From positions 1 through 54,873 of the forward strand of contig JAGLIO010000028.1 of assembly GCA_023142915.1 (NCBI GenBank): a DNA stretch of 54,873 nt, in the 5' to 3' direction. Position 1 is the first letter of the stretch, and each line of letters begins with the position of its first letter. Made by a program: the position numbers and the translations under genes. The stretch comes from Candidatus Parcubacteria bacterium (GTDB taxonomy: Bacteria; Patescibacteriota; Patescibacteriia; Patescibacteriales; UBA12075). Of the stretch, positions 19,160 to 43,478 are shown piece after piece. The notes beneath the pieces are model-generated. The model was not told the origin of the DNA, did not search any database, and saw only the letters and a list, made by a program, of their open reading frames with translations.

Positions 19160-20341
19160 ATGTATGGCATTAAGCATATGAGAAAAATAATTAAAAAAAT
19201 AATTATAAATATGCCGATTTTGTCGGGTTTTGTTAAAAAGCGCTATGACGATAAGCAGGAAGAGCGTTTGCAAAAAAGAATTAGAGATTTTTTAAAGAGA
19301 GATGAGTTGCCGTACGCAAAAAAAGCGCCGCAACAATATAGTGTCGGCCATGAACCGACTATTCGCTGTAATTTGCGCTGTAAAATGTGCTATCAGGCGG
19401 ATACCAGGGCAATGCGCCAGAGCGAACTTGATGCTGAGCAGATTTTAAAAATATATGCTAAACTAAAAGATAAGATAAAATCAATTAAATTGGTAGGTGG
19501 CGAGCCAATGGTTAGGAGCGATATTTTTGATTTGATTGATTATTTGGATAAAAATGATATTAAAATTACTTTGCAGTCAAATTGTACTTTGATTAATAAA
19601 GATAATATTAATAAATTCAAGAAATATAAAAATATTACCGATGTTGTTGCATCTTTAGACGGTTCGCGAGAAACTCATGACGCGATCAGAGGAGTAAAAG
19701 GCACTTTTGACCGTTTAAAAAACGCCTTAAATTTATTGCAAAAAAATCGCCCTGATATTCCAATTACTATTTTCGGCATGCTGCTTATTAACGATAATAT
19801 TGATAAAATGTTTGAGTTGGTTGATACTTGCAAAAATTTGGGCATTAATTCCATTAATATTTTATTTGAACAGGTTTATTCCAAAGGAAGCGTTGAAAAT
19901 TCAAAAAAAATATTAAAGCAAGAATTTGGCTGGGAGCCTGATTCGTATCAGATTAATACGCAGACCAGAGAGCCGGATTTTTCTGTTGATTTGGATAGCA
20001 GTAAGTTAAGAAAAAAATTAGAAAAAATAAGAGATTATGGCATTAAGAAAAAATGTTACGTAAATTTTACGCCGTTTAATTATTATAATAATTTGGACGG
20101 ATATTTAAAGAAAAAGCCGATTAAAGTTTTTTGCACAAAGTTATTATCACCGCAATTGCGGATTAACCAAAAAGGCAATGTGATTTGGTGCGATACGATT
20201 GAAAAATCATTTGGAAGTCTGCTTGAAAAAACTCCAGACGAAATTTGGCTTTCAGATGATTATCAAAAATTTAGAAAATTTTTATTCAAACACTCCCTGC
20301 CGGTTTGTACTAGGTGTTGTAAGGGGGTTTATGTGCAGTGA
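19160..20341 (+). CDS. radical SAM protein with C-terminal SPASM/twitch-like Cys-rich domain
   Basis: EPTIRCNLRCKMCYQ, LVGGEPMVRSD, and C-terminal CTKL...WCDT...CTRCC. The ATG lies 2 nt after the abiEii stop. Confidence 0.8.
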   Translation: MYGIKHMRKIIKKIIINMPILSGFVKKRYDDKQEERLQKRIRDFLKRDELPYAKKAPQQYSVGHEPTIRCNLRCKMCYQADTRAMRQSELDAEQILKIYAKLKDKIKSIKLVGGEPMVRSDIFDLIDYLDKNDIKITLQSNCTLINKDNINKFKKYKNITDVVASLDGSRETHDAIRGVKGTFDRLKNALNLLQKNRPDIPITIFGMLLINDNIDKMFELVDTCKNLGINSINILFEQVYSKGSVENSKKILKQEFGWEPDSYQINTQTREPDFSVDLDSSKLRKKLEKIRDYGIKKKCYVNFTPFNYYNNLDGYLKKKPIKVFCTKLLSPQLRINQKGNVIWCDTIEKSFGSLLEKTPDEIWLSDDYQKFRKFLFKHSLPVCTRCCKGVYVQ

Positions 20342-20360
20342 CCGTTTTTAATGAAAAATA

Positions 20361-21809
20361 ATGATTAATACTGATAATAAATTAGATTGCTTATTAATTT
20401 CTCCGCCGATTTTTTATAGCGAGAGCGATAATATATGGACAAAAGTTAATTCAAATTTTCCGCCATTAGGACTAGCGTCTATCGCGGCTTATGTGCGCAG
20501 TAAAAATTTCAGTGTTAGGATGATTGATTGCAATATTGAATCGCCGGCTGTTGAAAATTTTGAAACATTTTTTATTAAAAATTTTGTTAATAAATATAAA
20601 GATATAAGAGTAATCGGTTTGACCGCGATGACGCCTACAATAAAAAAGGCTTACCAAATAGCGCGGATATGTAAAAATTTTTATTCTGGCGCGTTGATTG
20701 TGTTTGGCGGGGTTCATCCGACCTTTGTGACAAAAGAAGTAATAAGCAAGCCGTTTATAGATATAGCTGTAATTGGAGAAGGGGAGCAGACATTTTTGGA
20801 AATTATAAAGCAAAAAGAATTAAAAAGCATAGACGGGATAGCATATAAAAATGGAAAAAATAAAAACGAGATAATTATTAATCAACCAAGAGCAAGAATT
20901 ATAGATTTGGATAAATTGCCAATGCCGGCTTATGATCTATTGCCGATTTTAAAATATAGGCCTGCAAAAGGCTCTTATAAGAGGCTGCCGGCAATGGCTA
21001 TGATGACATCGCGAGGCTGTCCCGGGCGATGCACTTTTTGCGCGAAAACTTTGGGCTTGCAATTATTTTTTAAATCAGCTAAAAAAATTTTTAAAGAAAT
21101 AAAATATTTAGTTAATAATTATGGAATAAAAGAAATACTTTTTTATGACGATACATTTACGGTTCACAAAAAAAATGTTATTGAATTATGTAATTTATTA
21201 TTAGCAAATAATATTGATATAACTTGGACTTGTTTTGCAAGAGTTGATTTTGTGGATGAAGAAATGCTTTATAAAATGAAAAAGGCCGGCTGTCATCAGA
21301 TAATGTACGGTGTTGAGAATATTGATCAAAGCGTACTCAAAAATATTAAAAAACAAATAAATATTAAGCAAGTTTTTAATGCGGTTAAGTTTACAAAAAA
21401 AGCCAAAATTGAATGCCGGCTTGCTTTTATGGTTGGCAATCCCGGAGATAGCGTGGAAATCGTAAAGAAAAATATTAAAGTTATTAAAAAATTAGATCCT
21501 GATTTGTTAATAGTAAATATAACTACTCCTTTTCCCGGTACGGAAATGTTTGAATGGGCTGATAAAAAAGGCTTGATTTTAAGTTATAATTGGGATGATT
21601 ATGATTTGGCAAATCCTGTCATGAGGCTTGAAGACATGAACGTGGAAGAAATTAAGAATTTATATAAAATCATGTATAGCAGTTTTTATTTTCGTCCCAG
21701 ATTTATTTTTAAAAAAATATTCAGCATCAGATCGTGCGAGGATTTTAAGGTTTTGTTCAGCGGTTTTACCGCGCTATTATCATTTTTTGCAATAAAAATT
21801 AAAAAATAA
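20361..21809 (+). CDS. B12-binding-domain (class B) radical SAM protein
   Basis: LLISPP, GLTAMTP, VFGGVHPT, MTSRGCPGRCTFCAK and FYFRPRF. Paralog of 15162-16622. Confidence 0.85.
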   Translation: MINTDNKLDCLLISPPIFYSESDNIWTKVNSNFPPLGLASIAAYVRSKNFSVRMIDCNIESPAVENFETFFIKNFVNKYKDIRVIGLTAMTPTIKKAYQIARICKNFYSGALIVFGGVHPTFVTKEVISKPFIDIAVIGEGEQTFLEIIKQKELKSIDGIAYKNGKNKNEIIINQPRARIIDLDKLPMPAYDLLPILKYRPAKGSYKRLPAMAMMTSRGCPGRCTFCAKTLGLQLFFKSAKKIFKEIKYLVNNYGIKEILFYDDTFTVHKKNVIELCNLLLANNIDITWTCFARVDFVDEEMLYKMKKAGCHQIMYGVENIDQSVLKNIKKQINIKQVFNAVKFTKKAKIECRLAFMVGNPGDSVEIVKKNIKVIKKLDPDLLIVNITTPFPGTEMFEWADKKGLILSYNWDDYDLANPVMRLEDMNVEEIKNLYKIMYSSFYFRPRFIFKKIFSIRSCEDFKVLFSGFTALLSFFAIKIKK

Positions 21810-21814
21810 CAAGC

Positions 21815-22519
21815 ATGAAACTTTCAATAATTATTCCGGTTTATAATGAAAAAAATACAATTTTAGAAATTCTTAAAAGAGTGGAAACTGTTAATTTGCC
21901 TGATGTATGCAAGGAGATAATTATTATTGATGATAAATCCAATGATGGAACTGTTGATATTTTAAAATCAATTGAAAATAAATTTAAAGTAATTTTTAAA
22001 GAAAAAAATCAAGGAAAAGGCTCAGCGGTTATTACCGGCTTTAAAGAAGCAACAGGAGATTTAATTATAATTCAAGATGCTGACTTGGAATATGACCCAA
22101 ATGAGTATAAAGAAGTTTTAGATCCGATAATTAAAGGCAGCGCGGATGTAGTTTACGGTTCAAGGTTTATATCCAATAAGCCGCATCGTGTTTTATATTT
22201 TTGGCATAGTGTCGGCAATAAGTTATTAACTTTATTCTCAAATATGTTGACAAATTTAACTTTAACAGATATGGAAACATGCTACAAAGCTTTTAATCGC
22301 AAAGCATTGGATTCTATTAAAGATAAATTAACATCAACAAAATTCGGTATTGAACCGGAAATCACTGCATTTATCGCCAAGAATAAAAATTTAAGAATAT
22401 ATGAAGTTGGTATTTCTTATTTCGGGCGCACTTATGAAGATGGCAAGAAAATAAATTGGAAGGATGGTTTTACGGCTATATGGAGCATTATCAAATTTAA
22501 TCTTTTTTATCGGCGGTAA
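21815..22519 (+). CDS. glycosyltransferase family 2 (soluble, DPM1-like)
   Basis: LSIIIPVYNEKNTI, IIIIDDKSNDGT and IIIQDADLEYDP. Confidence 0.85.
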   Translation: MKLSIIIPVYNEKNTILEILKRVETVNLPDVCKEIIIIDDKSNDGTVDILKSIENKFKVIFKEKNQGKGSAVITGFKEATGDLIIIQDADLEYDPNEYKEVLDPIIKGSADVVYGSRFISNKPHRVLYFWHSVGNKLLTLFSNMLTNLTLTDMETCYKAFNRKALDSIKDKLTSTKFGIEPEITAFIAKNKNLRIYEVGISYFGRTYEDGKKINWKDGFTAIWSIIKFNLFYRR

Positions 22520-22537
22520 TGTATAAAAAATTAAAGC

Positions 22538-23950
22538 ATGAATAAGCAAAAAATAATAGAATATTTCAATAAAAACGCGAAAGATATTTACAAATGGCGC
22601 GACCGCAACAGTTATTATTATAATGATTTAAAATCATTTTTTTGTTTTAATATTGAAAAAAATTCAAAAGTATTAGAAATAGGCTCCGGCTCAGGTGAAT
22701 TACTGGACGCGGTTAATTCGCGAGTCGGTTTTGGAATGGATTTAAGCAGTGAAGTGATAAAAATATCGCAAGAAAAATACCCGCAATTAAAATTTATATA
22801 TGGCGACATAGACAAAGAATTAAATATTGATGAAAAATTTGATTATATTATACTTTCAGATTTAATCGGCTATCTTGAAGACATTCAGACAAGTTTTGAA
22901 AATTTAAAAAAAGTTTGCCATGATCGCAGCCGTATTATAGTAACGCAATATAATAATATTTGGTGGCCGATTTTAAAATTCGGCGAGCATATCGGACTTA
23001 AGCAAAAACAGCCGATAACAAATTGGATTAGCAGAGGCGACATAATAAATTTATTTGATTTGGCCGGTTTTGAAGTAATTAAAAACGGAAAGCGCTTGCT
23101 ATTTCCAAAATATATTCCATTAATAAGTTTTCTGTTAAATAAAATTGTTGCTAATTTGCCGTTGATAAATCATTTATGTCTGGTAGAGTATTTTACTTTG
23201 CGGCAAAAATCAAAAAAGAGTAATGCTGATTATTTAGTTTCTGTTATTATTCCGGCTAGAAACGAGAAAGGCAACATTGAGGACGCTGTTAAACGGATCC
23301 CCGCTATGGGGAAAAATGTTGAAATAATATTTGTTGAAGGCAATTCAAATGATAATACCTGGGAAGAAATAAAAAGAGTGGCAGATAAATATGGCAGCGT
23401 AAAAGATATTAAATATTTTAAACAGGAGGGCAAAGGCAAATATGACGCTGTTAAAAAGGGATTTGCAAATTCACACGGAGATATATTAATGATTTTGGAC
23501 GCTGATTTGACTGTTCAGCCAGAAGTATTGCCGAAATTTTATGAAGTGATAAGCAGAGGAAAAGCCGAATATGTTCAAGGAACTCGCTTAATATATCCAA
23601 TGGAAGGCCAAGCAATGAGATTTTTAAATTATTTGGCCAATAAATTTTTTGGTTTTGCTTTTTCATGGCTGCTTGGACAATATATAACCGACACTTTATG
23701 CGGAACCAAAGTGCTGTTTAAGCATGATTATGAAAAAATAGCTCAAGCAAGAAAATTTTTCGGCGATTTTGATCCATTTGGAGATTTTGATCTTATTTTT
23801 GGCGCTGATAAGTTAAATTTAAAAATCGTTGAATTACCGATTCATTATAAGGACAGGCAATACGGTTCAACAAATATCAGCCGTTTTAGGCACGGCATTA
23901 TATTATTTCAAATGCTTTATGTAGGAATTAAAAAATTTAAATTATTTTAA
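22538..23950 (+). CDS. bifunctional class I SAM methyltransferase / GT2 glycosyltransferase
   Basis: N-terminal VLEIGSGSGELLD. C-terminal VSVIIPARNEKGNI, IIFVEGNSNDNT and LMILDADLTV. Confidence 0.8.
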   Translation: MNKQKIIEYFNKNAKDIYKWRDRNSYYYNDLKSFFCFNIEKNSKVLEIGSGSGELLDAVNSRVGFGMDLSSEVIKISQEKYPQLKFIYGDIDKELNIDEKFDYIILSDLIGYLEDIQTSFENLKKVCHDRSRIIVTQYNNIWWPILKFGEHIGLKQKQPITNWISRGDIINLFDLAGFEVIKNGKRLLFPKYIPLISFLLNKIVANLPLINHLCLVEYFTLRQKSKKSNADYLVSVIIPARNEKGNIEDAVKRIPAMGKNVEIIFVEGNSNDNTWEEIKRVADKYGSVKDIKYFKQEGKGKYDAVKKGFANSHGDILMILDADLTVQPEVLPKFYEVISRGKAEYVQGTRLIYPMEGQAMRFLNYLANKFFGFAFSWLLGQYITDTLCGTKVLFKHDYEKIAQARKFFGDFDPFGDFDLIFGADKLNLKIVELPIHYKDRQYGSTNISRFRHGIILFQMLYVGIKKFKLF

Positions 23951-23954
23951 TTTT

Positions 23955-24689
23955 ATGAGTGATACAAAAATAGCAACTGAAATAGAGCATGGCAAATTTA
24001 TTGCTCAAAAAGGCGAAGAAATATGGAACTGGTCATCTCCGGCAGGGATTGTCAGATGGCAGAGAAGAATAGAGATGTTTAAAAGTTTTATAGGAAATAA
24101 AAACAGAAAAGTTTTAGAAGTCGGGTGCGGCACAGGGCTTTTTACCAAAGAAATCGCGGAAACTAAAAATAAAATTATTGCGATAGATATTTCGCATGAG
24201 CTTTTAAATATTGCCAGAAAAAAAATTCAAAAAAATAACCTTACATTTTTACTAAGCAATGCTTATAAAACAGAATTTTCTGAAAATACATTTGATTTTA
24301 TAATCGGCAGCTCAGTACTGCACCACTTGAATGTTGACTTAGCATTGAAAGAATTTTACAGAATTCTTAAGCCGGGAGGAAAAATCATGTTTACAGAGCC
24401 GAATATGCTGAACCCTCAAATCGCAATTCAAAAAAATATTCCGTTTATAAAAAAAATGGTTGGAGATTCTCCAGATGAAACGGCTTTTGTAAAATGGAAA
24501 ATAAAAAATAAACTGAAAAAAGAAGGTTTTAATAATATTTCTGTGAATACATTTGATTTTTTGCATCCGTTTATTCCCGGATTTATTATTAAATTTGTCC
24601 AGCCAATTTTTAATTTTTGTGAAAAACTCCCGCTAATAAAAGAGATAGCTGGCTCTCTGGTAATAACTGCCAGTAAAGAGATAAAATAA
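23955..24689 (+). CDS. class I SAM-dependent methyltransferase
   Basis: VLEVGCGTGLFTKE and LKPGGKIMFTEP. Confidence 0.8.
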   Translation: MSDTKIATEIEHGKFIAQKGEEIWNWSSPAGIVRWQRRIEMFKSFIGNKNRKVLEVGCGTGLFTKEIAETKNKIIAIDISHELLNIARKKIQKNNLTFLLSNAYKTEFSENTFDFIIGSSVLHHLNVDLALKEFYRILKPGGKIMFTEPNMLNPQIAIQKNIPFIKKMVGDSPDETAFVKWKIKNKLKKEGFNNISVNTFDFLHPFIPGFIIKFVQPIFNFCEKLPLIKEIAGSLVITASKEIK

Positions 24690-24705
24690 TTTTTAATAAA
24701 ATAAA

Positions 24706-26169
24706 ATGGCAAATGTCTGTTTAATATATCCAAGAGATATAAATTTAAATTTTTTTCCTTTAGGGCTGGGCTATATAGCTTCTTTTTTAAAGCAAAAAGG
24801 GCATAATGTAATCTTTCTTGATTTATCTGAAAAAGATTTTTATTTATTAAAAGATCCAAAGGTTTTTAACGCTGATATTGTCGGTATTAGTATTACAACT
24901 CCGCAATTGGGAATGTCAGAAAAGATAATAAAAATTTTAAAATCCATGAATTCTAAGCTGCCAATTTCGGTCGGCGGAATACATCCTTCTTTTTTTAAAG
25001 ATAAATTTCTTAAAGATTATAAAGATGTTGATTATGTCGTATATGGAGAGGGCGAGGAAACTACGCGAGAGCTTTGCGATTATATAGACGGAAAAATTAA
25101 AGATATAAATATGATTGACGGTTTAATATTCAGGATGAACGAAAAAATAATTATTAATAAGCCAAGAGAGATGATCTCTGATTTAAATTCTTTGCCTTTT
25201 CCGGCAAGAGAGCTGGTTAATTATGAAACTTATTTAAAGCCGCCAGGCTTGATTAGGGGAATATGGACTAAGCGAAGCGCCAATATTAGCACAAGCAGAG
25301 GATGTCCAGGAAGATGCACGTATTGCGGTGTGAATTATATATTTAATAGAAGCTATCGGCGAAGAAGCACGGACAATGTAATTTCAGAGATTGATTTTTT
25401 AGTGCGAGAATATAATATTGACGGTCTTTATTTTATGGATGATACATTTTTAATGAATACTGAATGGATTGAAGAATTTACAAAAAAATTTATTGCGAAA
25501 AAATATAATATAACTTGGTCTTGTTATGGAAGAGTGGATACCGTAAATGAGCGCATTTTAAAAGCAATTAAAAAAGCAGGCTGTGTCCAAGTTGAATATG
25601 GAATTGAATCCGGTTCCAAAGGAGTTCTTAAAAGAATACAAAAAAATACTGACATAGACAAAATAAAGCAGGCAATTAAAATGACAAAGGAGAATAAACT
25701 AAGGGCGCTTGGTTCTTTTATTTTCGGTTTTGTTGAAGATACGGAAGAGGATTTACAGGAATCAATTGATTTAGCCAGAGAATTAAATTTGGATTTTAGC
25801 GCCGCTTTTTTCGCCACTCCTTATCCGGCATCGGAAATTTACAAACAAGCCGTTTTAGAAGATAGAATCATAGAAAAAGATTTGTCAAAATGGTATGTGA
25901 GAAATAATAATATTTGGAGAGTTAATCTCAGTAAAGAAGCCATAACAAAGTATCGCAATAAATTTTTAAAAGAGACCAGGTTTAATAATCTCACCTTCTT
26001 TTTAAAAGACCCAAAGCTGTTTTTTAACCTGATTTTTTTTGTTATAAAAAATTATGACGCGATTTTTAAAGCGATTAAGCAATCTTTTAAAGCGCGCTCT
26101 TTTGATGATATAGGTTATTATTTTTATACTTATTTATCAAAAGATTTAGAAATTAGAAATAAAATATGA
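24706..26169 (+). CDS. B12-binding-domain (class B) radical SAM protein
   Basis: VCLIYP, VGISITTP, SVGGIHPS and STSRGCPGRCTYCGV. Confidence 0.85.
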   Translation: MANVCLIYPRDINLNFFPLGLGYIASFLKQKGHNVIFLDLSEKDFYLLKDPKVFNADIVGISITTPQLGMSEKIIKILKSMNSKLPISVGGIHPSFFKDKFLKDYKDVDYVVYGEGEETTRELCDYIDGKIKDINMIDGLIFRMNEKIIINKPREMISDLNSLPFPARELVNYETYLKPPGLIRGIWTKRSANISTSRGCPGRCTYCGVNYIFNRSYRRRSTDNVISEIDFLVREYNIDGLYFMDDTFLMNTEWIEEFTKKFIAKKYNITWSCYGRVDTVNERILKAIKKAGCVQVEYGIESGSKGVLKRIQKNTDIDKIKQAIKMTKENKLRALGSFIFGFVEDTEEDLQESIDLARELNLDFSAAFFATPYPASEIYKQAVLEDRIIEKDLSKWYVRNNNIWRVNLSKEAITKYRNKFLKETRFNNLTFFLKDPKLFFNLIFFVIKNYDAIFKAIKQSFKARSFDDIGYYFYTYLSKDLEIRNKI

Positions 26170-26828: not shown

Positions 26829-26839
26829 TATATATTTTT

Positions 26840-28429: not shown

Positions 28430-28441
28430 ATTAGAATATTT

Positions 28442-30864: not shown

Positions 30865-30914
30865 AATTATCGCGCGAAAATATGAATTTTTATAATAAAG
30901 TAACAAAATAAAAT

Positions 30915-31850: not shown

Positions 31851-31898
31851 ATTTAATGGAAGTAGAAAATTTTTATAATTTATTTAGTGATAAAAATA

Positions 31899-32918
31899 AT
31901 GAAAATAACAATTATAATCCCGCGTTTAAAAATTTCAGGCGGCGTAATAATTTTAGCGATTTATGCCCACTATTTGTTTTTATTGGGGCATGAAGTAAAA
32001 ATAATAATGAATAATCCGGTTGCTTGGCGGCGGTTTTTGGCAAATTTATTAAAATACAAACCGAATTGGATGAGCGATTTTAAATTAAAAATAATTAGAA
32101 CTCCAGAAATTAATGAAAAATATTTTTCAGAAGCTGATATTTTAATGATATCAACGTATAGGCATGCTAATTTAATTAAAAATTTTTCAAATAAATTTGG
32201 GAAAAAAGTTTATTTAATCCAGCATGATGAAAGATTGTACCATGGCAAATCCGATGAGGTAGCCGAGGCATATAAATTGCCTTTTAAATTTATCGCAGTG
32301 TCAACTTGGGTAAAAGAAAGATTGAAAAAAGATTTTAATCAGGACACCGAATTATTATTAAATACTTTGGATAAAAATATTTTTTATCCGCGAGAAATAA
32401 AAAGGAGTGATCGCGATATTAGAATTTTAATGCTCCATCATACGTATGAGTGGAAAGGCGCCAAAGAAGGCATGGAAATTATAAATGATTTAAAGAAAAA
32501 GCATAATAATATAAAATTAATTATGTATGGCGCACGCCAAGAAAACGTTGAATGCGATGAATATTATTATAAACCTTTTGGCAAAGAAACCGCGGAGTTA
32601 TTTTCCGGATGTGATGTTTTTCTTTGCCCGTCATGGGACGAAGGTTTTGGCTTGCCGTCTTTAGAAGCTATGGCTTGCGGATGCGCTTTGGCAACTTACG
32701 ATAACGGCGGTTCGCGCGATTTTGCGTTTCACAATAAGACCGCTTTAGTCGCTGAGAGGCGGAATAAAAAAGACTTGAAAGAAAAATTAGAATTATTAAT
32801 TAAAAATAGCGGTTTAAGAAAGCAGATTGCGAAAAACGGCTGCCAGTTTGTTAAAGAAATGCCAACATGGAAAGAGCAAGCTAAAAAAATGGAATTAATT
32901 TTGCAAAAATTATTATAA
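31899..32918 (+). CDS. glycosyltransferase family 4 (GT-B)
   Basis: EGFGLPSLEAMACGCALATYDNGG. Start at ATG 31899 (track: GTG 31887). Confidence 0.8.
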   Translation: MKITIIIPRLKISGGVIILAIYAHYLFLLGHEVKIIMNNPVAWRRFLANLLKYKPNWMSDFKLKIIRTPEINEKYFSEADILMISTYRHANLIKNFSNKFGKKVYLIQHDERLYHGKSDEVAEAYKLPFKFIAVSTWVKERLKKDFNQDTELLLNTLDKNIFYPREIKRSDRDIRILMLHHTYEWKGAKEGMEIINDLKKKHNNIKLIMYGARQENVECDEYYYKPFGKETAELFSGCDVFLCPSWDEGFGLPSLEAMACGCALATYDNGGSRDFAFHNKTALVAERRNKKDLKEKLELLIKNSGLRKQIAKNGCQFVKEMPTWKEQAKKMELILQKLL

Positions 32919-32927
32919 ATTTTTTAT

Positions 32928-33788
32928 ATGAAGCCAAAAGTCAGTATTATAATACCAACATGTAATCGCCCGAATTTAATTAAACGAGCCATTAATTCTG
33001 TTTTAAAGCAAACTTTTCAAGATTTTGAAATTATTATTGTTGACGATGGTTTTAAAGAAAGAGCCGAAAAGGTTGTTAAAAATATTAAAGATGAACGGAT
33101 AAAATATATTCAGCATGAAGTTAATAAGGGCGGCGGGGCGGCTCGGAACACGGGAATTAAAGCAACGCAAGGCGAGTATATTGCTTTTTTGGATGATGAT
33201 GACGAGTGGGTGCTAGAGAAGCTTGGGTTACAGATGTCTGCGTTGGAAAATACCACGGACGATGTTGGTTTTTGTTTTACGGCTGTTGAAAATATTTATG
33301 ATGAAAGAACGGAAAGATCGCATATTCCGGAAGGAAAAGATGATTATCACAATCTTGCTCTTTCAAGTTTTAAAAAATTTTTGACTGTTACACTAGTAAT
33401 TAAAAAAAATGTTTTTGATGAAATTGGTTTTTTTGATGAAAATTTACCTAGCCATCAAGAGGCCGAGCTAATGATAAGGGTAACTAAAAAATTTTTGGGT
33501 GTTGGTATTAATCAGCCATTAGTAAGGGTAAACATGAAAAGCGAGCATAGTCAAGTTGGTAAAAATTATGCAAGAAAAATTAATGGAGCGGAGTTGTTGA
33601 TTAAAAAACATTTTGATAAGTACAAAGATAAGTCGGAAAAACTAGCTAAACATTATTTTCAATTAGGGATTTATTGTAGAGATAATAAAGAGATAAAAAA
33701 AGCAAGAAGATATTTTTTAAAGGCATGGAAATTGAATTATAAAGAAATAAGATATTTGTTTCATTTTTTTGTTAATATTGTTAAGTAA
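32928..33788 (+). CDS. glycosyltransferase family 2
   Basis: VSIIIPTCNRPNLIKRAINSVLKQTFQDFEIIIVDDG and IAFLDDDDEW. Confidence 0.85.
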   Translation: MKPKVSIIIPTCNRPNLIKRAINSVLKQTFQDFEIIIVDDGFKERAEKVVKNIKDERIKYIQHEVNKGGGAARNTGIKATQGEYIAFLDDDDEWVLEKLGLQMSALENTTDDVGFCFTAVENIYDERTERSHIPEGKDDYHNLALSSFKKFLTVTLVIKKNVFDEIGFFDENLPSHQEAELMIRVTKKFLGVGINQPLVRVNMKSEHSQVGKNYARKINGAELLIKKHFDKYKDKSEKLAKHYFQLGIYCRDNKEIKKARRYFLKAWKLNYKEIRYLFHFFVNIVK

Positions 33789-33807
33789 TAAAATTAAAAT
33801 TATTTTA

Positions 33808-34542
33808 ATGAATATAAATAAAAATTTGAAAATTGATAACAGTGAAAGATGCTATCTTGATTATTCTAAGAAAAGAATAGTGAATGACCATATTGAAAGA
33901 TATATGTTCGCGCAAAAATACGTTAAAGATAAAATTGTTTTGGATATAGCCTGCGGGGAGGGTTATGGAAGTGAAATGATTAAAAACGGAGGAGCAAAAC
34001 AAGTTTACGGCTCTGATAATGATTCTAAAATAATAGAGCATGCGAGCAGTAAATATTCAGATATTAATTTTGAGGCGACGGATGCGGCAAAAACGTCTTA
34101 CGCGAATAATATTTTTGATTTAATTATTTCTTTTGAAACTTGGCACCATTTGGATAATTATAGCGTTTTTATACCGGAAATGCATAGAATATTAAAATTA
34201 GGCGGAAAATTAATAATTTCCGTTCCTAATGAAAAAATAATATACCTAAATCCTTTTTTCCATGGTTATTTAACTAAATATTATCGAGTGAATTTTAATG
34301 TCAAAAAAATTAAAAAAATGATTAATGGTTTTTTTGAAGTAGAAGAAATATATGGGCAAAGATTTGTTAAAAAAGCCTATATAAACTTTTTTTCTAAATT
34401 AATTTTATCGGTTTTAAGTTTAGTAAATAAAAATTTAAAAGAAAGAATAAGCATTGCGTTTAAACTTGCTGATGGCGCTAAAGTAAAAAGGATGAAAAAC
34501 GATAACGCCAGGTATATTATTTTTGTTTGTAAAAAAATTTAA
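33808..34542 (+). CDS. class I SAM-dependent methyltransferase
   Basis: VLDIACGEGYGS and LKLGGKLIISVPN. Start at ATG 33808. Confidence 0.75.
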   Translation: MNINKNLKIDNSERCYLDYSKKRIVNDHIERYMFAQKYVKDKIVLDIACGEGYGSEMIKNGGAKQVYGSDNDSKIIEHASSKYSDINFEATDAAKTSYANNIFDLIISFETWHHLDNYSVFIPEMHRILKLGGKLIISVPNEKIIYLNPFFHGYLTKYYRVNFNVKKIKKMINGFFEVEEIYGQRFVKKAYINFFSKLILSVLSLVNKNLKERISIAFKLADGAKVKRMKNDNARYIIFVCKKI

Positions 34543-34551
34543 TAAATAAAA

Positions 34552-35799
34552 ATGAACAAAATCAAAAAAAATAAAATAGCTTTTTTTATCGGAGCTTTTC
34601 CGGCAATTTCGGAATCTTGGTTTATTGAACAGTTAGCTGGCTTGATTGATATGGGCGCGAAAATTGATATTTTTTCATTTAAAAAAGGGGGCAAAGGCAA
34701 TATTTCCGAGAAAGTGCAAAAATATGATTTAATTAACAAAACAACATATCTTGAATATCCAAATTCGTGGTTCAAAAGAATATCGATTGGTTTATATTTT
34801 TTCTTAAAGATAATTTTATTAAAACCTTCGGTTATTTTTAATTATTATATATATACTCGCTCCAACAAACAAAAATTTACTTTAAAATATTTATTTTGGA
34901 TTGGACCGATAGTTAATAAAATTAATAATTATTATTTAATCCATTGTCATTTTGGCATGATTGGAAATAGATTTTTGATTATCAGGAAAATATTAAAACT
35001 TAAACAAAAAATTGTCGTTACTTTTTATGGGCAAGATTCAAGCAAGTATATTCAGCAAAAGGGTTTAAGAGTTTATGATAATTTAAAAAGAGAAAGCAGT
35101 TATTTTTTGTTGATGACACAGGAGATGAAGGAAAGATTTGTCAAACTTGAATTTCCTGTTGAAAAATTATTAGTTCATTATACAGGAGTTAATATGGATA
35201 ATTATATTTTTAATTTTAAAACATTTAAGAGGCCTAATGTTTTTAGAATTATCACTGTGGGCAGATTTGTGGAAAAGAAAGGGCTGGAAGACGCGCTTAG
35301 AGCCATTAAAATTGCCGTAAAAGAATATAATAATATTGAATTGAATATTGTCGGAGGAGGAGAAAAAGAGTATAAAGATAAATTAATGAAAATGGTGTCT
35401 GAAATGGGGCTTGAGAAAAATGTAAAATTTTTAGGATTATTACCGCACCAAGAAACAATTAGTTTATTCAGAAAAATGCATGTTATGCTTCAAATGAGCA
35501 AGCGGGCGAAAAACGGGGATACGGACGACCTGCCTTTCGTGATTCTTGAATCACAAGCAAGCGGTTTGCCGGTAATAACAACCAGACATGTAGGCATACC
35601 CGATGGAATTTGTGATAAGAAAACCGGATATATTGTTCGCGAGGGGGATTATAATGAGGCATCTGAAAAAATCATGTATTTAATAAATAATCCCGAGTTA
35701 TTACAAAATTTTAGCTATAGCGCCGCGAAGTTTGTTAAAAATAAGTTTGATTTAAAAAAATTAAATCAAAAACTGATTTTTTTATATAAATCCTTGTAA
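34552..35799 (+). CDS. glycosyltransferase family 4 (GT-B)
   Basis: RIITVGRFVEKKG and FVILESQASGLPVITTRHVGIPD. Confidence 0.8.
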   Translation: MNKIKKNKIAFFIGAFPAISESWFIEQLAGLIDMGAKIDIFSFKKGGKGNISEKVQKYDLINKTTYLEYPNSWFKRISIGLYFFLKIILLKPSVIFNYYIYTRSNKQKFTLKYLFWIGPIVNKINNYYLIHCHFGMIGNRFLIIRKILKLKQKIVVTFYGQDSSKYIQQKGLRVYDNLKRESSYFLLMTQEMKERFVKLEFPVEKLLVHYTGVNMDNYIFNFKTFKRPNVFRIITVGRFVEKKGLEDALRAIKIAVKEYNNIELNIVGGGEKEYKDKLMKMVSEMGLEKNVKFLGLLPHQETISLFRKMHVMLQMSKRAKNGDTDDLPFVILESQASGLPVITTRHVGIPDGICDKKTGYIVREGDYNEASEKIMYLINNPELLQNFSYSAAKFVKNKFDLKKLNQKLIFLYKSL

Positions 35800-35830
35800 T
35801 AAATAATTAATTTTAATAGTTATTACGCAA

Positions 35831-36478
35831 ATGTTTAAATTGCTTATATCCAAAATTAAGATTCTTTGCGATACGCGTTATCTGGTAAAAAAAATAATGA
35901 GATTATTTATAGTTAATCAAGCGGCGATTGGCAATTATGAAACAATCGTTGATATTGGAGCGGGCAAGGCTCCATATAAAAAAATATTTAAATATAAGAA
36001 ATATATAATTTGTGATGTTGAAAATAAGTATAATTTTGAGGATATAGTTATTATTAAGCCAAACGATATATTGCCGTTGAAAGATGATTATGCGGATTTA
36101 GCGCTGTCAACAGAAGTATTAGAACATGTAAAAGATATTGATTTGTTTTTATCCGAAATATACAGGATAATGAAGAGCGGCGGAAAACTGATTATGACTA
36201 CTCCATTTTTGTGGCCGGTTCATGAAGCCCCAAATGATTACCGGCGGTTTACAAATTTTGGCATTAAACATCTGCTAACAAAAAAAGGGTTTAAGAATAT
36301 AAAAATAATTCGCAGTAATGGGTTTTTATTTACTTTATGCCAATTGATAGTAATGAATTTAAAAGCGAGAATTTTTGTTCCAATTGTTATTGTATTTAAT
36401 TTAATCGGAAGAATAATCTATAAAATAGAAAAAAATAAGAATTTGTATTTAATTAATTTTATTACCGCAACAAAATAA
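35831..36478 (+). CDS. class I SAM-dependent methyltransferase (Methyltransf_11-like)
   Basis: VDIGAGKAPYK, LSTEVLEHV and GGKLIMTTP. Confidence 0.7.
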   Translation: MFKLLISKIKILCDTRYLVKKIMRLFIVNQAAIGNYETIVDIGAGKAPYKKIFKYKKYIICDVENKYNFEDIVIIKPNDILPLKDDYADLALSTEVLEHVKDIDLFLSEIYRIMKSGGKLIMTTPFLWPVHEAPNDYRRFTNFGIKHLLTKKGFKNIKIIRSNGFLFTLCQLIVMNLKARIFVPIVIVFNLIGRIIYKIEKNKNLYLINFITATK

Positions 36479-36518
36479 TTTTATTGTATTTTGTTAGAAT
36501 AATTGTTAACATAAATTT

Positions 36519-37559
36519 ATGCATAAATCTATCCGAAAAATCAAACATTTTATTTTTTTATTAAAAAATAAAATGTTTGATTTAATTTTTTATAAAATTG
36601 CGCAAATGTTAAATATTAAGATGTTGCCGCCTCTCCCAAATTGGCTGGTGATTGAACCCAATAATACTTGTAATTTAAATTGCATAACTTGTCCTACCGG
36701 CAACAAAACGCTTGGTCGGCCGCCTCGTTTAATGTCAATTGAAGAATTTAAATCAATAGTAGATCAGGTTTATGGTTATGTGGGCAAAATAGTATTATTT
36801 AATTATGGCGAACCATTTTTAAATAAAGACATTTTTAAAATGATAAAATACGCAACCCGAAAAAAAATTTTAGTAAAGGTAAGCACAAATGGAATGGTTA
36901 CTAATAATAAAGAAATTTGCAAAAAAATTATTGAAAGCGGTTTACAGCGCTTAATAATATGTATTGATGGTCTGGATGATGAAACAATTAACATATCAAG
37001 GCCGGGGGCAAAAATAAAAAATATTTTAGAGAGTTTTGAATATATGCGTAACGCGAAAAGAGAATTAAAATCTAAGCTGCCAAGAGTTGAGATGCAATAT
37101 ATCGTAATGAAGCATAATGAATCCCAAAAAGAAGAAATAAAAAAATTGGCAAAAAAATATAATGTTGATGTTTTTTCGGAAAAAACAATCGGGCTTGATG
37201 TAAGAGAGAAAAATTTTGATAAAATGGCAAAAATGTTATTGCCGGAGAATGAAAGCAGCTCCAGATATTTTAGGGATGAAAATGGCAAGGCAAGATTAAA
37301 AGGGGATGTAATGAACAATTGTGAGATAATAAAAAATTCGTCTGTTATTAATTCCGATGGTTCAGTTGTTCCGTGTTGTTATGATTTGTTTTCAGAACAT
37401 GTGATGGGTAATGTAAATAATGAGAGTTTAAAAAGCATATGGAAAGGCGAAAAGTATAAAAAATTTAGAGTGGCTGTTAAAAGTAATAGAAAATTTATAT
37501 CAATGTGCGGTATTTGCCCGGAGGGGAGAGTAAAAGCTTCGGACAAAAAATGTATTTAA
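36519..37559 (+). CDS. radical SAM / SPASM domain protein
   Basis: EPNNTCNLNCITCPTG, NYGEPFLNKD, and SPASM-type DGSVVPCCYD...CGICPEG. Confidence 0.8.
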   Translation: MHKSIRKIKHFIFLLKNKMFDLIFYKIAQMLNIKMLPPLPNWLVIEPNNTCNLNCITCPTGNKTLGRPPRLMSIEEFKSIVDQVYGYVGKIVLFNYGEPFLNKDIFKMIKYATRKKILVKVSTNGMVTNNKEICKKIIESGLQRLIICIDGLDDETINISRPGAKIKNILESFEYMRNAKRELKSKLPRVEMQYIVMKHNESQKEEIKKLAKKYNVDVFSEKTIGLDVREKNFDKMAKMLLPENESSSRYFRDENGKARLKGDVMNNCEIIKNSSVINSDGSVVPCCYDLFSEHVMGNVNNESLKSIWKGEKYKKFRVAVKSNRKFISMCGICPEGRVKASDKKCI

Positions 37560-37596
37560 TATGTATAATTAATTTTAATATAAATTTGTAAAAGTT

Positions 37597-38754
37597 ATGA
37601 AAACATTTTTTTTTGGCGAACCCAATATAGGCAAGGATGAAATTGATGAAATTTCTAAAGTAATCAAATCAAACTGGATTGGTTATGGGAAAAAAAGCAT
37701 AGAATTTGAAAATAAATTATTAAGATATATCGGAGCCAAGGCCGGCGTTGCTTTGAGTTCTTGTACAGCTGCTCTTCATTTATCGTTGATTTTAAATGGA
37801 GTTAAAGAAGGAGATGAAATAATTACAACTTCTTTTACTTTCGCGGCTACTTCAAATGTGATTGTCCAGATGCGGGCTAAACCGGTTTTTGTTGATATTA
37901 ACAAAAAAACGCTTAATATTGACGAAGATTTGGTAGAGGAAAAAATCAACAAAAAAACAAAAGGAATTATTGTTGTTCATTTTGGCGGCTTGCCGTGTAA
38001 TATGAATAAAATAAATAAAATTGCCAAGAAATATAAGCTGTTTGTTATTGAAGATGCGGCGCATGCTTTTGGCGCTGAAATCAACGCAAAAATGATAGGT
38101 AACTCCAATAATTTAACATGTTTTAGTTTTTATGCAAACAAAAATTTAACTACGATTGAAGGAGGTTTTTTGTGTTGTAATGACATAAAAAAAATTGAGC
38201 GGGCAAAAATTTTACGTTTACACGGATTGGATAATAATGCATGGAAAAGATATAAAGAAAAAAGCAACTTATCTTTTGAGGTGATTGAATTGGGGTATAA
38301 ATACAACATTACTGATATTCAATCCGCATTTGGATTGTCGCAATTAAAAAAATTCAAAACTTCGCTTAAATTAAGACAAAAAAGAGCAACGCTTTATGAT
38401 AATATTTTGTCGGATATTAGAGAAATTGAATTACAGCCTAAGTTTGATTTAAATATAAAGCACGCATTTCATTTATACGCTATCGTGATTAAACCCAATA
38501 AATTTCGCGTTAAGCGCGATGAAATTGTTTATGAATTAAGAAGAAACGGCGTGTTTGCAGTTGTGCATTATAAGCCGTTGCATTTGCATAAATTTTATAA
38601 AGAAAAATTTGGATACAAAAAGGGAGACTTTAAAAATACGGAAATAGTTGGTGATAATATTTTTACTTTACCGTTATTGCCGCAAGTTAGCCTACAAAAT
38701 TCAAAAAAAATTGCCCTTGTCGCGAAAAAAATATTACAAAAATATCAAAAATAA
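37597..38754 (+). CDS. DegT/DnrJ/EryC1/StrS family sugar aminotransferase (PLP-dependent)
   Basis: GDEIITTSFTFAAT, IEDAAHAFGAE and FSFYANKNLTTIEGG (PLP lysine). Confidence 0.9.
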   Translation: MKTFFFGEPNIGKDEIDEISKVIKSNWIGYGKKSIEFENKLLRYIGAKAGVALSSCTAALHLSLILNGVKEGDEIITTSFTFAATSNVIVQMRAKPVFVDINKKTLNIDEDLVEEKINKKTKGIIVVHFGGLPCNMNKINKIAKKYKLFVIEDAAHAFGAEINAKMIGNSNNLTCFSFYANKNLTTIEGGFLCCNDIKKIERAKILRLHGLDNNAWKRYKEKSNLSFEVIELGYKYNITDIQSAFGLSQLKKFKTSLKLRQKRATLYDNILSDIREIELQPKFDLNIKHAFHLYAIVIKPNKFRVKRDEIVYELRRNGVFAVVHYKPLHLHKFYKEKFGYKKGDFKNTEIVGDNIFTLPLLPQVSLQNSKKIALVAKKILQKYQK

Positions 38755-38800
38755 AATTTTATAGTTTTAGCATTTTATAATATTAAGTTAACAATTACCT

Positions 38801-39541
38801 ATGATTAAAACAAAGACGGAGATTTTCGTTAAACTAAAAAACTATTGCCAAAAACACAAAGAAGATAGATTGTATTTTACAAAAAGTCGCGCACCTTTTT
38901 ACGAACTGGCAGGAAAATATTTGCCTAACGATAAAAATGCAATTGTGGCAGATATTGGATGTTCAGATTGTTCTTTTGCAAGATTTTTAGAGTTAGATGA
39001 AAAATATACTAATTTTTATAATCTTGATAAAGTTGATGATATTATTAATAGTTATCCCAACGCGCGCAATTATCTTGCGCCGGAAAGACTTCCATTTGAC
39101 AATAATACAGTAAGCTATATTCATTGCAGTCATTTAATAGAACATTTAAATATAGATGATGCGTATGAATTAGTAAGAGAAATGAATCGCGTTTTAAAGA
39201 AAGACGGTATATTGGTTATATCCGCCCCTTTGTTCAATAGACTGTTTTTTGAGCACCCTTTTCACGTTAAAATTTACAGCCCTTTATTTTTCCAGTTATG
39301 CTTGGTTGATCGTAAAAATATTGGATATGAAGGAGCGGAAGGCGACATAATTTCCAAAAAATATAAAATAGAGAAAGTTGTTTATCGCTATGCGCAGACT
39401 TCGGTTGAGAGGCTTTGGTATTCTGATTATTGCATAATTGAGTTTTTTATTAAAGCGTATTTACGTTTATTACGTTTCCTTAAATTTCGTAAATTTCATA
39501 GAGATGCTTACACAATGGTACTTAAAAAAATGGGGGAATGA
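38801..39541 (+). CDS. class I SAM-dependent methyltransferase (Methyltransf_11-like)
   Basis: VADIGCSDCSFA, IHCSHLIEHL and DGILVISAP. Confidence 0.7.
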   Translation: MIKTKTEIFVKLKNYCQKHKEDRLYFTKSRAPFYELAGKYLPNDKNAIVADIGCSDCSFARFLELDEKYTNFYNLDKVDDIINSYPNARNYLAPERLPFDNNTVSYIHCSHLIEHLNIDDAYELVREMNRVLKKDGILVISAPLFNRLFFEHPFHVKIYSPLFFQLCLVDRKNIGYEGAEGDIISKKYKIEKVVYRYAQTSVERLWYSDYCIIEFFIKAYLRLLRFLKFRKFHRDAYTMVLKKMGE

Positions 39542-43475: not shown

Positions 43476-43478
43476 TTT

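Follow-up and report, generated by a model that had tools for sequence, protein, structure and literature searches.

What do the radical S-adenosylmethionine (rSAM) enzymes and methyltransferases crowded into a surface-glycan locus of a Candidatus Parcubacteria bacterium act on? The locus lies on contig JAGLIO010000028.1 of assembly GCA_023142915.1, positions 1 to 54,873 of which form the window, the whole stretch of DNA analysed here. A first-pass annotation, made from the letters alone, had described a 20-gene surface-glycan operon at 19160–39541 and had suggested that it builds a heavily methylated or carbocyclic sugar decoration on a lipid-linked glycan. The analysis presented here points, with a probability of about 0.55, to a more specific answer: sugars linked to polyprenyl phosphate would be modified by radical chemistry and O-methylated, and GT-C glycosyltransferases would then transfer them outside the membrane onto a flipped glycan or a surface protein. 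Genes are named by their start coordinates.

Two cassettes are built around class B rSAM enzymes. Cassette A consists of the rSAM gene 20361 and the GT2 gene 21815, while cassette B comprises 22538, 23955, 24706, and 26166. A third class B paralogue, previously placed at 15162, lies upstream, and its B12-binding and Radical_SAM domains were found in the frame starting at 15153.

15153–16622, plus strand: third class B rSAM paralogue (Pfam B12-binding 63 bits, Radical_SAM 97 bits; motif CPGMCTYC)
20361–21809, plus strand: class B rSAM enzyme of cassette A (Pfam B12-binding and Radical_SAM; motif CPGRCTFC)
21815–22519, plus strand: soluble GT2 of cassette A, predicted polyprenyl-phosphate sugar synthase type (NCBIfam, orthologue profile)
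22538–23950, plus strand: fusion protein of cassette B, class I methyltransferase (residues 24–182) joined to a GT2 of predicted polyprenyl-phosphate sugar synthase type (residues 235–363; Pfam)
23955–24689, plus strand: class I methyltransferase of cassette B, generic UbiE/BioC-like (Pfam Methyltransf_11, 88 bits)
24706–26169, plus strand: class B rSAM enzyme of cassette B (Pfam B12-binding 85 bits, Radical_SAM 92 bits; motif CPGRCTYC)
26166–26828, plus strand: class I methyltransferase of cassette B (Pfam), overlapping 24706 by 4 nucleotides

For the comparison across genomes, 80 genome loci and several metagenome loci were chosen through rSAM similarity, and synteny was scored by tblastn with the window proteins. 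The genome collection holds at least 560 confirmed relatives, and homologues of 20361 run into the thousands. The stretch 20361–26828, which the first-pass annotation had regarded as one core, falls into two conserved cassettes, and these recur in other genomes. An orthologue of the GT2 21815 (40–75% identical) is encoded within 3 kb on the same strand in nine of the ten loci whose rSAM enzyme is at least 60% identical to 20361, and in 17 of 26 at an identity of at least 44%. At 40–43% identity, which serves as an internal control, the count drops to 2 of 17. Because of these identity-stratified counts, the rSAM–GT2 pairing is regarded as a property of the 20361 subfamily and not of class B rSAM enzymes generally. 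The two genes occur in either order with gaps of 3–115 nucleotides, and a methyltransferase usually adjoins them. Fusions are found as well, namely methyltransferase–GT2 in the window (22538), GT2–methyltransferase in locus L006, and a 719-residue rSAM–methyltransferase in L004.

Genes of the PMT/PMT_2 type directly flank the pair in L005 (a Woesearchaeote), L006 (Saganbacteria), L025 and L088 (Portnoybacteria), L011, L089, and L099. In L005, a minimal PMT–rSAM–GT2 unit of three genes stands alone beside ribosomal genes. A protein of at least 250 residues with at least eight hydrophobic segments is encoded within 5 kb of the anchor in 18 of 24 cases, and nine of these proteins match a hidden Markov model (HMM) of the PMT_2 type. 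Long synteny with the window is seen in L089 and L099, extending over 26840, 28442, GT2 21815, rSAM 20361, two GT4 genes, GT2 32928, the Wzx-type flippase, and the phosphoglycosyltransferase.

Cassette B is kept in all seven loci with adequate flanks, including that of the cultured Desulfocarbo indianensis SCBM (L021). In these seven, orthologues of 22538 (34–50% identity) flank those of 24706, which in turn are adjoined by orthologues of 23955 (40–65%) and directly followed by orthologues of 26166 (30–62%). Orthologues of 24706 with 55–67% identity occur in L021 and L091–L099. In L021 the cassette is interleaved with a 645-residue protein (4536–6473; no Pfam match), followed by a 755-residue DUF6044 protein (11651–13918). 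Large membrane proteins, the DUF6044 protein among them, come after cassette B in this organism, and both the 645-residue and the DUF6044 protein are candidates for unrecognised transferases in the GT-C role. The second-best NCBIfam match of 23955, which adjoins a B12-domain rSAM gene, is the corrinoid protein-associated methyltransferase CpaM at 70.5 bits, below the cut-off of 180.

Orthologues of 20361 at 60–70% identity are spread over Patescibacteria, Woese- and Nanoarchaeota (DPANN), Saganbacteria, Omnitrophota, Promethearchaeota, and Elusimicrobia, a distribution typical of horizontal spread. That cassette A came from phages or is carried by them was considered by analogy with phage gtr genes and rejected, as IMG/VR holds only class B rSAM proteins of at most 32% identity and no orthologues. 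The first-pass annotation had also noted that cobalamin-type rSAM enzymes are rare in ordinary O-antigen/capsular loci. The locus is not a plain O-antigen operon, and among uncultured anaerobes glycan loci rich in rSAM genes are common: L004 (Patescibacteria, on a 957 kb contig) and two Bacteroidales loci (L036 and L037) carry five class B rSAM genes each, L076 (Deltaproteobacteria) about seven together with three of the SPASM type, and overall such other loci have 5–9 rSAM genes. The window is therefore no singular case.

The glycosyltransferases of the window indicate what the rSAM enzymes may work with. The GT-A, GT-B, and GT-C set reported earlier was found in full, and could be refined in that the GT2 domains of 21815 and 22538 are of the polyprenyl-phosphate sugar synthase type. 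Both cassettes have genes for GT-C transferases (26840 and 28442) as neighbours, and a third module, module C, lies on the minus strand.

26840–28429, plus strand: divergent GT-C-like polytopic membrane protein (hhalign, BLASTP; about 12 hydrophobic segments)
28442–29800, plus strand: GT-C glycosyltransferase, PMT_2/ArnT-like (Pfam PMT_2 38 bits, cut-off 26.1)
42303–46801, minus strand: module C, canonical Gtr-like (Pfam, NCBIfam, transmembrane segments), with GT2 45929, FrhB-like protein 44577, methyltransferase 43868, GtrA flippase 43479, and PMT_2-type GT-C 42303

The best NCBIfam models for 21815 are AglJ (121 bits, cut-off 325), PgfS (75, cut-off 500), ArnC (68, cut-off 529), and PpgS (52, cut-off 370), with the haloarchaeal Dol-P-hexose transferase also among the top matches. 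The GT2 domain of 22538 shows the same preferences (AglJ at 95.6 bits, then Dol-P-hexose transferase, PgfS, and ArnC), and the top matches of 45929 are likewise of the AglJ/PgfS/ArnC type, whereas GT2 32928 is TuaG/WcaA-like. A profile named A7, built from 14 orthologues of 21815 and compared with GT2 structures, aligned to Pyrococcus furiosus DPMS with 110.7 bits over positions 1–209, the whole catalytic domain. ArnC (83–87 bits) and GtrB (76.6 bits) also matched over the whole catalytic domain, while other GT2s matched only at positions 1–115, the nucleotide-binding N-terminal half. By these family and profile matches, 21815, the C-terminal domain of 22538, and 45929 are relatives of polyprenyl-phosphate sugar synthases and not members of the named equivalogs. 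Two C-terminal transmembrane helices are present in 45929 and none in the other two proteins.

With three DPMS-like GT2s, the window encodes three GT-C proteins. PMT_2 of module C (42303) scores 48.6 bits and 28442 also exceeds the cut-off of 26.1; orthologues of the latter (44–48% identity) occur in L088, L089, and L099. The protein 26840 has no Pfam match even at E ≤ 5 and no NCBIfam match, and the other unannotated ORFs gave no meaningful Pfam match at such a permissive threshold either. However, over 208 columns at the N-terminus, including the acidic motif of the first loop, hhalign relates 26840 to the PMT_2 set (E = 6e-8, probability 94.7%), and BLASTP relates it to 28442 (E = 3e-5). 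Assignment of 26840 to GT-C is therefore supported as a remote relationship only, and its orthologues (43–47% identity) are syntenic in L089 and L099. In module C, the methyltransferase 43868, noted earlier as the seventh, was verified by Pfam on the minus strand. Between this gene and GT2 45929 lies 44577–45920 (minus strand), encoding a redox protein, an Fe-S/flavin protein similar to FrhB/FdhB (F420 hydrogenase beta-type) that has a hydrophobic segment at its C-terminal end.

The same island also encodes the components of what would be an ordinary pathway for a glycan backbone on lipid pyrophosphate.

29767–30864, plus strand: GT4 glycosyltransferase (Pfam Glycos_transf_1)
30915–31850, plus strand: UDP-glucuronate decarboxylase (UXS), a short-chain dehydrogenase/reductase by Pfam (415 bits, E = 1.9e-123 to human UXS1)
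31887, within 31887–35799, plus strand: GT4 (Pfam GT4/GT-B)
32928, within 31887–35799, plus strand: GT2, TuaG/WcaA-like (Pfam, NCBIfam)
33769/33808, within 31887–35799, plus strand: class I methyltransferase (Pfam)
34552, within 31887–35799, plus strand: GT4, WcaL-like (Pfam, NCBIfam)
35831–36478, plus strand: class I methyltransferase with a hydrophobic C-terminus (Pfam; hydrophobic segment 165–199)
37597–38754, plus strand: DegT-family sugar aminotransferase (Pfam 380 bits; PseC 329 and ArnB 307 bits, both below cut-off)
38801–39541, plus strand: class I methyltransferase (Pfam), at the end of the plus-strand run
39551–40798, minus strand: Wzx-type flippase (Pfam Polysacc_synt, 68 bits)
52700–54055, minus strand: initiating phosphoglycosyltransferase (Pfam Bac_transf, 216 bits)

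The protein 30915 aligns to human UXS1 over residues 3–310, with the next families at 132 bits or less. In L014, L016, L020, and L092, a UXS orthologue (52–70% identity) is a neighbour of cassette A or B. The genes of 31887–35799 have syntenic orthologues (37–56% identity) in L088, L089, and L099. In L089, orthologues of the flippase 39551 (47% identity, at the same position) and of the phosphoglycosyltransferase 52700 (60%) are also found. A Methyltransf_13/14 protein, of the sugar C-methyltransferase type, is encoded at 12567–13829 of L089 adjoining DegT, which points to a chemistry of keto sugars in the part of such loci that serves the backbone. As the first-pass annotation had stated, neither a Wzy polymerase nor a 4,6-dehydratase was recognised by Pfam or NCBIfam; Wzy_C, O-antigen ligase, and Wzz had no match among the scanned window open reading frames (ORFs) of at least 100 residues.

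These backbone genes raise the question of whether the locus is simply a conventional Wzx-dependent heteropolysaccharide locus, in which the rSAM enzymes would act on cytoplasmic nucleotide sugars, the rSAM–GT2 pair would provide donor and transferase, and the GT-C proteins would be polymerase- or ligase-like. The presence of a phosphoglycosyltransferase, Wzx, three GT4s, and a TuaG/WcaA-like GT2 is in line with this, as is a GT2 21815 devoid of a membrane anchor, and the divergent polytopic 26840 could fill the role of the missing Wzy. Such a locus is nevertheless improbable: 28442 and 42303 pass the PMT_2 threshold, 26840 aligns to these and not to Wzy or ligase families, the GT2s match DPMS, ArnC, and GtrB over the full catalytic domain, and the solitary PMT–rSAM–GT2 unit of the Woesearchaeote occurs beside ribosomal genes.

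What the class B enzymes themselves do was approached through family models and structures. The CX3CX2C motif is intact in all five rSAM enzymes of the island (15153, 19160, 20361, 24706, and 36519), and in the three class B enzymes an N-terminal Rossmann-type B12-binding domain (PF02310; 63–85 bits, cut-off 32.1) precedes the rSAM core. The highest NCBIfam scores of 20361 are HpnJ (TIGR03471) with 210 bits against a cut-off of 577.6 and BchE (TIGR02026) with 207 against 481; BchE gives 206 bits with 24706 and, as the best match, 223 bits with 15153. The HMM comparison proposed by the first-pass annotation gave a uniform result, as no rSAM enzyme of the island reaches the curated NCBIfam cut-off of any characterised family (HpnJ, BchE, AprD4, PhpK, and others), and none is a member of such a family. 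The three paralogues are 32–37% identical to each other (37% for 15153 and 20361). They are regarded as distinct subfamilies because each has much closer orthologues elsewhere, and a recent duplication was rejected on the same comparison, with 47–69% identity to those orthologues. Orthologues of 15153 (47–51% identity) are found in the glycan loci L004, L055, and L057.

Among solved structures, the best sequence match of 20361 is AprD4, a sugar 1,2-diol dehydratase (E = 6.4e-22; 18–19% identity). The AlphaFold2 (AF2) model of 20361 has a predicted local distance difference test (pLDDT) score of 92.9, and its best Foldseek match is again AprD4 (E = 6e-28; template modelling scores 0.73/0.78), followed by TsrM, MgmA, OxsB, CysS, and TokK. 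A hydrophobic helix at residues 462–480 in the C-terminal part is conserved. With intact motifs, confident models, and best solved relatives that act on sugars, the rSAM enzymes look functional and sugar-related.

The closeness to AprD4 in both sequence and fold, and the fact that AprD4 acts on a sugar ring, bring up a different chemistry within the same architecture. The class B-type enzymes would then produce deoxy or keto sugars, either as radical diol-dehydratases of the AprD4 kind or as epimerases, and all methyl groups would come from the class I methyltransferases. With no 4,6-dehydratase present, the locus would benefit from a different way of making such sugars, and a keto product could feed the DegT aminotransferase 37597. 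Against this stand the AprD4 model (NF033070), which scores 20361 at just 98 bits (cut-off 500), far behind the HpnJ, BchE, and P-methyltransferase models, the well-matched B12-binding Pfam domain (73–85 bits), and the B12-uptake genes of the island, one set of which directly follows rSAM 15153. In addition, no AprD3-like partner reductase was identified adjoining the cassettes. Taken together, this chemistry is considered unlikely, although it is the main rival to C-methylation.

HpnJ, as the top NCBIfam model of 20361, suggests yet another reaction, in which a GT2 glycosylates a membrane lipid and the rSAM enzyme contracts the ring to a cyclitol that is kept as a glycolipid head group, as in HpnI/HpnJ or calditol synthase (Cds). 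Scavenged lipids, on which CPR (Candidate Phyla Radiation) bacteria rely, might be remodelled by them, and polysaccharide-deacetylase genes are found near the rSAM–GT2 pair in L004 and L006. The substrates of HpnJ and Cds are lipid-bound hexoses, and both enzymes follow a glycosyltransferase (PMC13459092). However, the HpnJ score is far below its cut-off and equals that of BchE, and 21815 resembles polyprenyl-phosphate sugar synthases, its sole hopanoid-associated GT2 match being HpnB with 24 bits. A GT-C transferase is moreover co-conserved, and on chemical grounds a ring-contracted cyclitol phosphate would have lost the ability to donate a glycosyl group to it. Because a carbocyclic phosphate could not donate to this partner, ring contraction of the HpnJ/Cds type is disfavoured; the carbocyclic idea of the first-pass annotation fits poorly with the conserved GT-C, and this reading is more doubtful still than that of a conventional Wzx locus.

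Genes that may supply cobalamin form part of the island.

16640–17227, plus strand: DUF6580 membrane protein (Pfam 172 bits; about six hydrophobic segments)
17257–17712, plus strand: DUF4430 protein (Pfam 75.5 bits; one hydrophobic segment)
50200–50338, plus strand: cobalamin riboswitch (Rfam RF00174; 38.2 bits, gathering score 31.5, E = 3.5e-6)
50366–52216, plus strand: transcobalamin-like surface protein of 616 residues (Pfam DUF4430 and an alpha/alpha-toroid of the prenyltransferase/squalene-hopene cyclase-like type; N-terminal hydrophobic segment)
52251–52763, plus strand: small immunoglobulin-like ORF, 3' of 50366–52216

The rSAM gene 15153 is followed by the DUF6580 and DUF4430 genes at gaps of 17 and 29 nucleotides, and in L048, from a metagenome-assembled genome of Coxiellaceae, a DUF6580 homologue lies directly upstream of a class B rSAM gene, the two together within 2235–4092. 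DUF4430 is the C-terminal domain of transcobalamins (PMC4350170). The DUF6580 and DUF4430 proteins of the window are put forward as a putative pair for cobalamin uptake and binding. DUF6580 may be a B12 transporter; this stays a proposal because the search for a solved relative returned none at E ≤ 1. The protein 50366–52216 has the two-domain layout of transcobalamin, and the region 50200–52763 as a whole resembles a B12 scavenger on the CPR cell surface that is under riboswitch control. Neither 15153 nor the DUF6580 gene has a further cobalamin riboswitch upstream at E ≤ 1. For the putative cobalamin binding by the class B enzymes, the evidence is circumstantial, namely the riboswitch, the transcobalamin-like proteins, and DUF6580.

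Most characterised class B rSAM enzymes are methylases (PMC12931638). Because of this, and because B12-acquisition genes are part of the island and methyltransferases are constant partners of the cassettes, C-methylation or alkyl extension is favoured, and C-methylation is most likely the radical chemistry of the class B enzymes.

Domain identities, family placements, synteny, and the conservation of the cassettes are established by these comparisons; the substrate on a lipid, the chemistry, the acceptor, and the sequence of steps are inferred. The proposed pathway places three side-branch modules of the Gtr/Arn/Pgf type beside an ordinary lipid-pyrophosphate backbone pathway, which would comprise the phosphoglycosyltransferase 52700, the GT4s 29767, 31887, and 34552, GT2 32928, methyltransferases, UXS, DegT, and Wzx 39551. 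Every module would begin with its DPMS/ArnC-like GT2, namely 21815, the C-terminal domain of 22538, or 45929, which would load one sugar on polyprenyl phosphate at the cytoplasmic face, where the lipid-linked sugar would then be tailored. In modules A and B, the tailoring would be carried out by a class B rSAM enzyme (20361 or 24706) and one to three class I methyltransferases. The radical step would most likely methylate an unactivated carbon of the sugar or extend an O-methyl group, for which GenK, MoeK5, and CysS are precedents, whereas the class I enzymes would add O-methyl groups. Finally, on the outer side of the membrane, a GT-C protein (26840, 28442, or 42303) would pass the tailored sugar to a surface protein or to the glycan flipped by Wzx. 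A candidate for the donor is UDP-xylose, in view of the UXS orthologues beside the cassettes. The transcobalamin-like protein under riboswitch control and the DUF6580/DUF4430 pair would serve to scavenge cobalamin. Tentatively, the families of 20361 and 24706 would represent the first rSAM enzymes to act on polyprenyl-phosphate-linked monosaccharides, installing C-methyl or longer alkyl branches or extending O-methyl groups before GT-C transfer.

Several observations weigh against this proposal. The rSAM enzyme could act on a nucleotide sugar ahead of the GT2 instead of on the lipid-linked sugar. The GT2 domains of 21815 and 22538 score below every curated NCBIfam cut-off and have none of the helices, transmembrane or anchoring, that are found in DPMS, ArnC, and GtrB. 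Soluble polyprenyl-phosphate sugar synthases exist, among them PpgS and human DPM1. A GtrA-type flippase was recognised only in module C (43479) and none for modules A and B. The family models with the highest scores for the class B enzymes are HpnJ and BchE, not methylases. AprD4, to our knowledge, binds no cobalamin. It has the same N-terminal domain as the class B enzymes and is treated as unrelated to B12-dependent enzymes (PMC12931638); for this reason, the B12-binding domain alone is no proof of cobalamin use. The synteny statistics come from rSAM-selected loci and tblastn rather than from full annotation, with the identity-stratified comparison as sole control. Finally, the adjacency of 36519 and DegT 37597 in the window is not conserved in L088–L090, a point taken up below.

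Besides the class B enzymes, the island contains two rSAM enzymes of the SPASM/Twitch type, and these bear on whether the rSAM genes belong to a glycan pathway at all.

19160–20341, plus strand: rSAM enzyme with an abbreviated SPASM/Twitch-type C-terminal domain (Pfam Radical_SAM 88.7 bits, SPASM 34.7 bits; motif CNLRCKMC)
36519–37559, plus strand: Twitch/SPASM rSAM enzyme, BtrN/BlsE-like (Pfam Radical_SAM and SPASM; motif CNLNCITC)

The best match of 19160 in the Protein Data Bank is weak and is the sactipeptide maturase SkfB (E = 4e-12), and ApyD and other models for RiPPs, peptides made by ribosomes and modified after translation, appear in the NCBIfam lists. Both would suit SPASM/Twitch and class B enzymes that mature peptides, with the glycan genes as unrelated neighbours. 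All RiPP-model scores are far below cut-off, however, and no free-standing small ORF adjoins any rSAM gene, the operon gaps being at most 50 nucleotides. The orthologue contexts of the island rSAM genes, among those examined, are all glycan loci. A RiPP role with a nearby precursor, which the first-pass annotation had named as an outcome that would overturn its view, is thus largely refuted and very improbable.

For 36519, the AF2 model (pLDDT 96) has BlsE and BtrN as best fold matches (E = 1e-13), with MoaA, SuiB, and anSME within two orders of magnitude of that value. Its residues C268, C286/287, C330, and C333 align with the four auxiliary-cluster cysteines of BtrN, and the Twitch cysteines are invariant in 55 homologues. 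Orthologues (45–55% identity) occur in the glycan loci L088–L090. Probably, 36519 oxidises or decarboxylates a sugar, and because no 4,6-dehydratase is present, its product could supply the keto-sugar for the aminotransferase 37597. A BtrN/BtrS-like pair that oxidises and then transaminates is retained as a secondary idea only, since the cysteines fit but the neighbourhood of DegT is unconserved in L088–L090.

The 20 ORFs of the plus-strand run extend from 19160/19211 to 39541 with intergenic distances of −34 to +50 nucleotides, in agreement with the tightly packed single-strand run described earlier. The window belongs to a metagenomic scaffold of 135.8 kb (ENA ERZ23498512), and in the gene calls of this source contig the first rSAM gene starts at 19211 (376 residues), not 19160. 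The domains listed by the first-pass annotation were recovered by Pfam, with UXS and 26840 needing extra comparisons. Its view of a surface-glycan locus with lipid-linked intermediates agrees with the glycan contexts and the polyprenyl-phosphate-type GT2s. The AT-richness it had remarked on is also seen: genes at 19.2–46.8 kb have a mean GC content of 0.297 against 0.347 for the remaining genes (p = 3.6e-4 by the Mann-Whitney test), and a third-position GC content (GC3) of 0.265 against 0.335 (p = 2.4e-4). Its O-antigen/capsular polysaccharide frame is wrong, since the host is a CPR/Parcubacteria-like bacterium: the named homologues closest to its QueA, with 72–78% identity, come from Candidatus Parcubacteria or the Patescibacteria group.

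The same-strand run begins upstream of 19160 with rSAM 15153, the two putative B12-uptake genes, and an AbiE toxin–antitoxin pair, and the Wzx-type flippase and initiating phosphoglycosyltransferase lie just outside 19160–39541. The glycan region is larger than this interval, and it is best explained if about 15.1 to 54.1 kb forms a cell-envelope glycosylation island of a Patescibacteria (CPR) bacterium. Its flanks are bacterial housekeeping genes (NusB, RNase III, QueA, and YbeY). Scans for promoters and terminators to bound the operon were uninformative, as matches were near shuffle expectation and intragenic in the AT-rich DNA.

17806–19157, plus strand: AbiEi/AbiEii toxin–antitoxin pair (AbiEii by Pfam; AbiEi by NCBIfam, 35.9 bits, below cut-off)

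This pair splits rSAM 15153 and the B12 genes from the main operon and has a GC content of 0.32–0.40, above that of the operon. Another AbiEi/AbiEii type IV pair is located at 9565–10801 (minus strand), and an AAA_14/DUF4143 ATPase is encoded past the flippase 39551 at 40920–42170 (minus strand). The two AbiE pairs and this ATPase suggest a recombination-prone variable island. Adjoining an AbiE pair, 11017–13677 (plus strand) encodes an 886-residue SMC_N/AAA_21/AAA_15 ATPase, which is short for a bacterial SMC and could be either an ATPase of the defence type or the SMC of CPR bacteria in reduced form. A protein of 1061 residues, encoded at 46980–50165 (plus strand) in the interval from the glycan island to the riboswitch, has a Laminin_G_3 domain (concanavalin-like lectin) and a calcineurin-like phosphoesterase domain and may be an enzyme that is secreted or located at the surface. 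A sixth rSAM gene of the window, 3147–4769 (plus strand), adjoins QueA and encodes a bacterial Elp3-like protein (ELP3_N, Radical_SAM, and Radical_SAM_C) with a presumed role in tRNA modification.

The genomes of CPR bacteria generally measure about 1 Mb and provide little biosynthetic capacity. The present bacterium devotes about 30–40 kb, five rSAM genes, and B12-scavenging genes to surface glycans, and it is therefore argued that the decoration matters for its lifestyle. Cassettes at 55–75% identity across bacterial and archaeal phyla mark a widespread, unstudied enzyme–substrate pairing. Class B rSAM enzymes are a large family of which a small part is characterised, and a lipid-linked sugar substrate, if true, would add a new reaction context. 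The proposal would then imply a horizontally spread, B12-dependent surface diversification of CPR bacteria, DPANN archaea, and other anaerobes, which could matter for episymbiont–host recognition or phage evasion. Both cassettes are directly testable, cassette B being present in the cultured Desulfocarbo indianensis and cassette A comprising two to four genes. The result is also a guide to annotating the "B12-binding radical SAM" genes that metagenomes contain by the thousands.

Known three-component systems for lipid-linked sugars include GtrA/GtrB/GtrV of Shigella and Salmonella phages, ArnC/ArnT for modification of lipid A with 4-amino-4-deoxyarabinose (Ara4N), PgfS/PgfM1 of Streptococcus mutans, Ppm1/Pmt of Actinobacteria, and AglJ/AglD/AglS of Haloferax. 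Like these, the window combines DPMS-type GT2s with GT-C proteins, and in module C with GtrA. As in the Arn system, ArnA-like decarboxylase chemistry (UXS) and an ArnB-like DegT aminotransferase are present. In contrast to these systems, the tightest partner of the GT2 is here a class B rSAM enzyme, and two of the three GT2s are devoid of membrane helices. We know of none of these systems with an rSAM enzyme, and of few with methyltransferases.

The N-terminal B12-binding domain followed by an rSAM core is shared with GenK and GenD1 (gentamicin), Fms7, and MoeK5, which likewise have carbohydrate substrates. MoeK5 performs the 4-C-methylation of the first sugar of the phosphoglycolipid moenomycin, a sugar linked to a lipid phosphate. 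All four are listed as Csp3-methyltransferases (PMC12931638). They belong to secondary-metabolite clusters of Actinobacteria, whereas the context in the window is envelope glycosylation in CPR, DPANN, and other anaerobes, and, unlike GenK and MoeK5, the window enzymes have HpnJ and BchE as nearest HMMs, each below the curated cut-off.

A GT2 adjoining a B12-domain rSAM enzyme is also a feature of HpnI/HpnK/HpnJ (bacteriohopanetetrol cyclitol ether) and of Cds, which act on a lipid-bound hexose. The window differs in having no hopanoid or glycerol dialkyl glycerol tetraether genes and a DPMS/ArnC-like GT2, and its GT-C partner implies that the sugar is passed on and not kept as a head group. 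AprD4 of apramycin biosynthesis, the best solved match of 20361, resembles it in having a sugar substrate and differs by its low identity and sub-threshold HMM score. For 36519, the parallel is BtrN, a 2-deoxy-scyllo-inosamine dehydrogenase working with the aminotransferase BtrS: the Twitch cysteines are in register and a DegT gene is adjacent, although BtrN and the cytosylglucuronate decarboxylase BlsE are only about 14–19% identical to it.

Reviews of B12-dependent (PMC12931638) and lipid-modifying (PMC13459092) rSAM enzymes list no enzyme of polyprenyl-phosphate-sugar or surface-glycan pathways, and no description of such an rSAM/polyprenyl-phosphate-sugar system was found in the searchable literature, the coverage of which leaves out subscription-only papers. 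Compared with all these systems, the new point is the organisation: class B rSAM enzymes coupled to GT2s of the polyprenyl-phosphate sugar synthase type and to GT-C transferases, in a widespread and unstudied arrangement.

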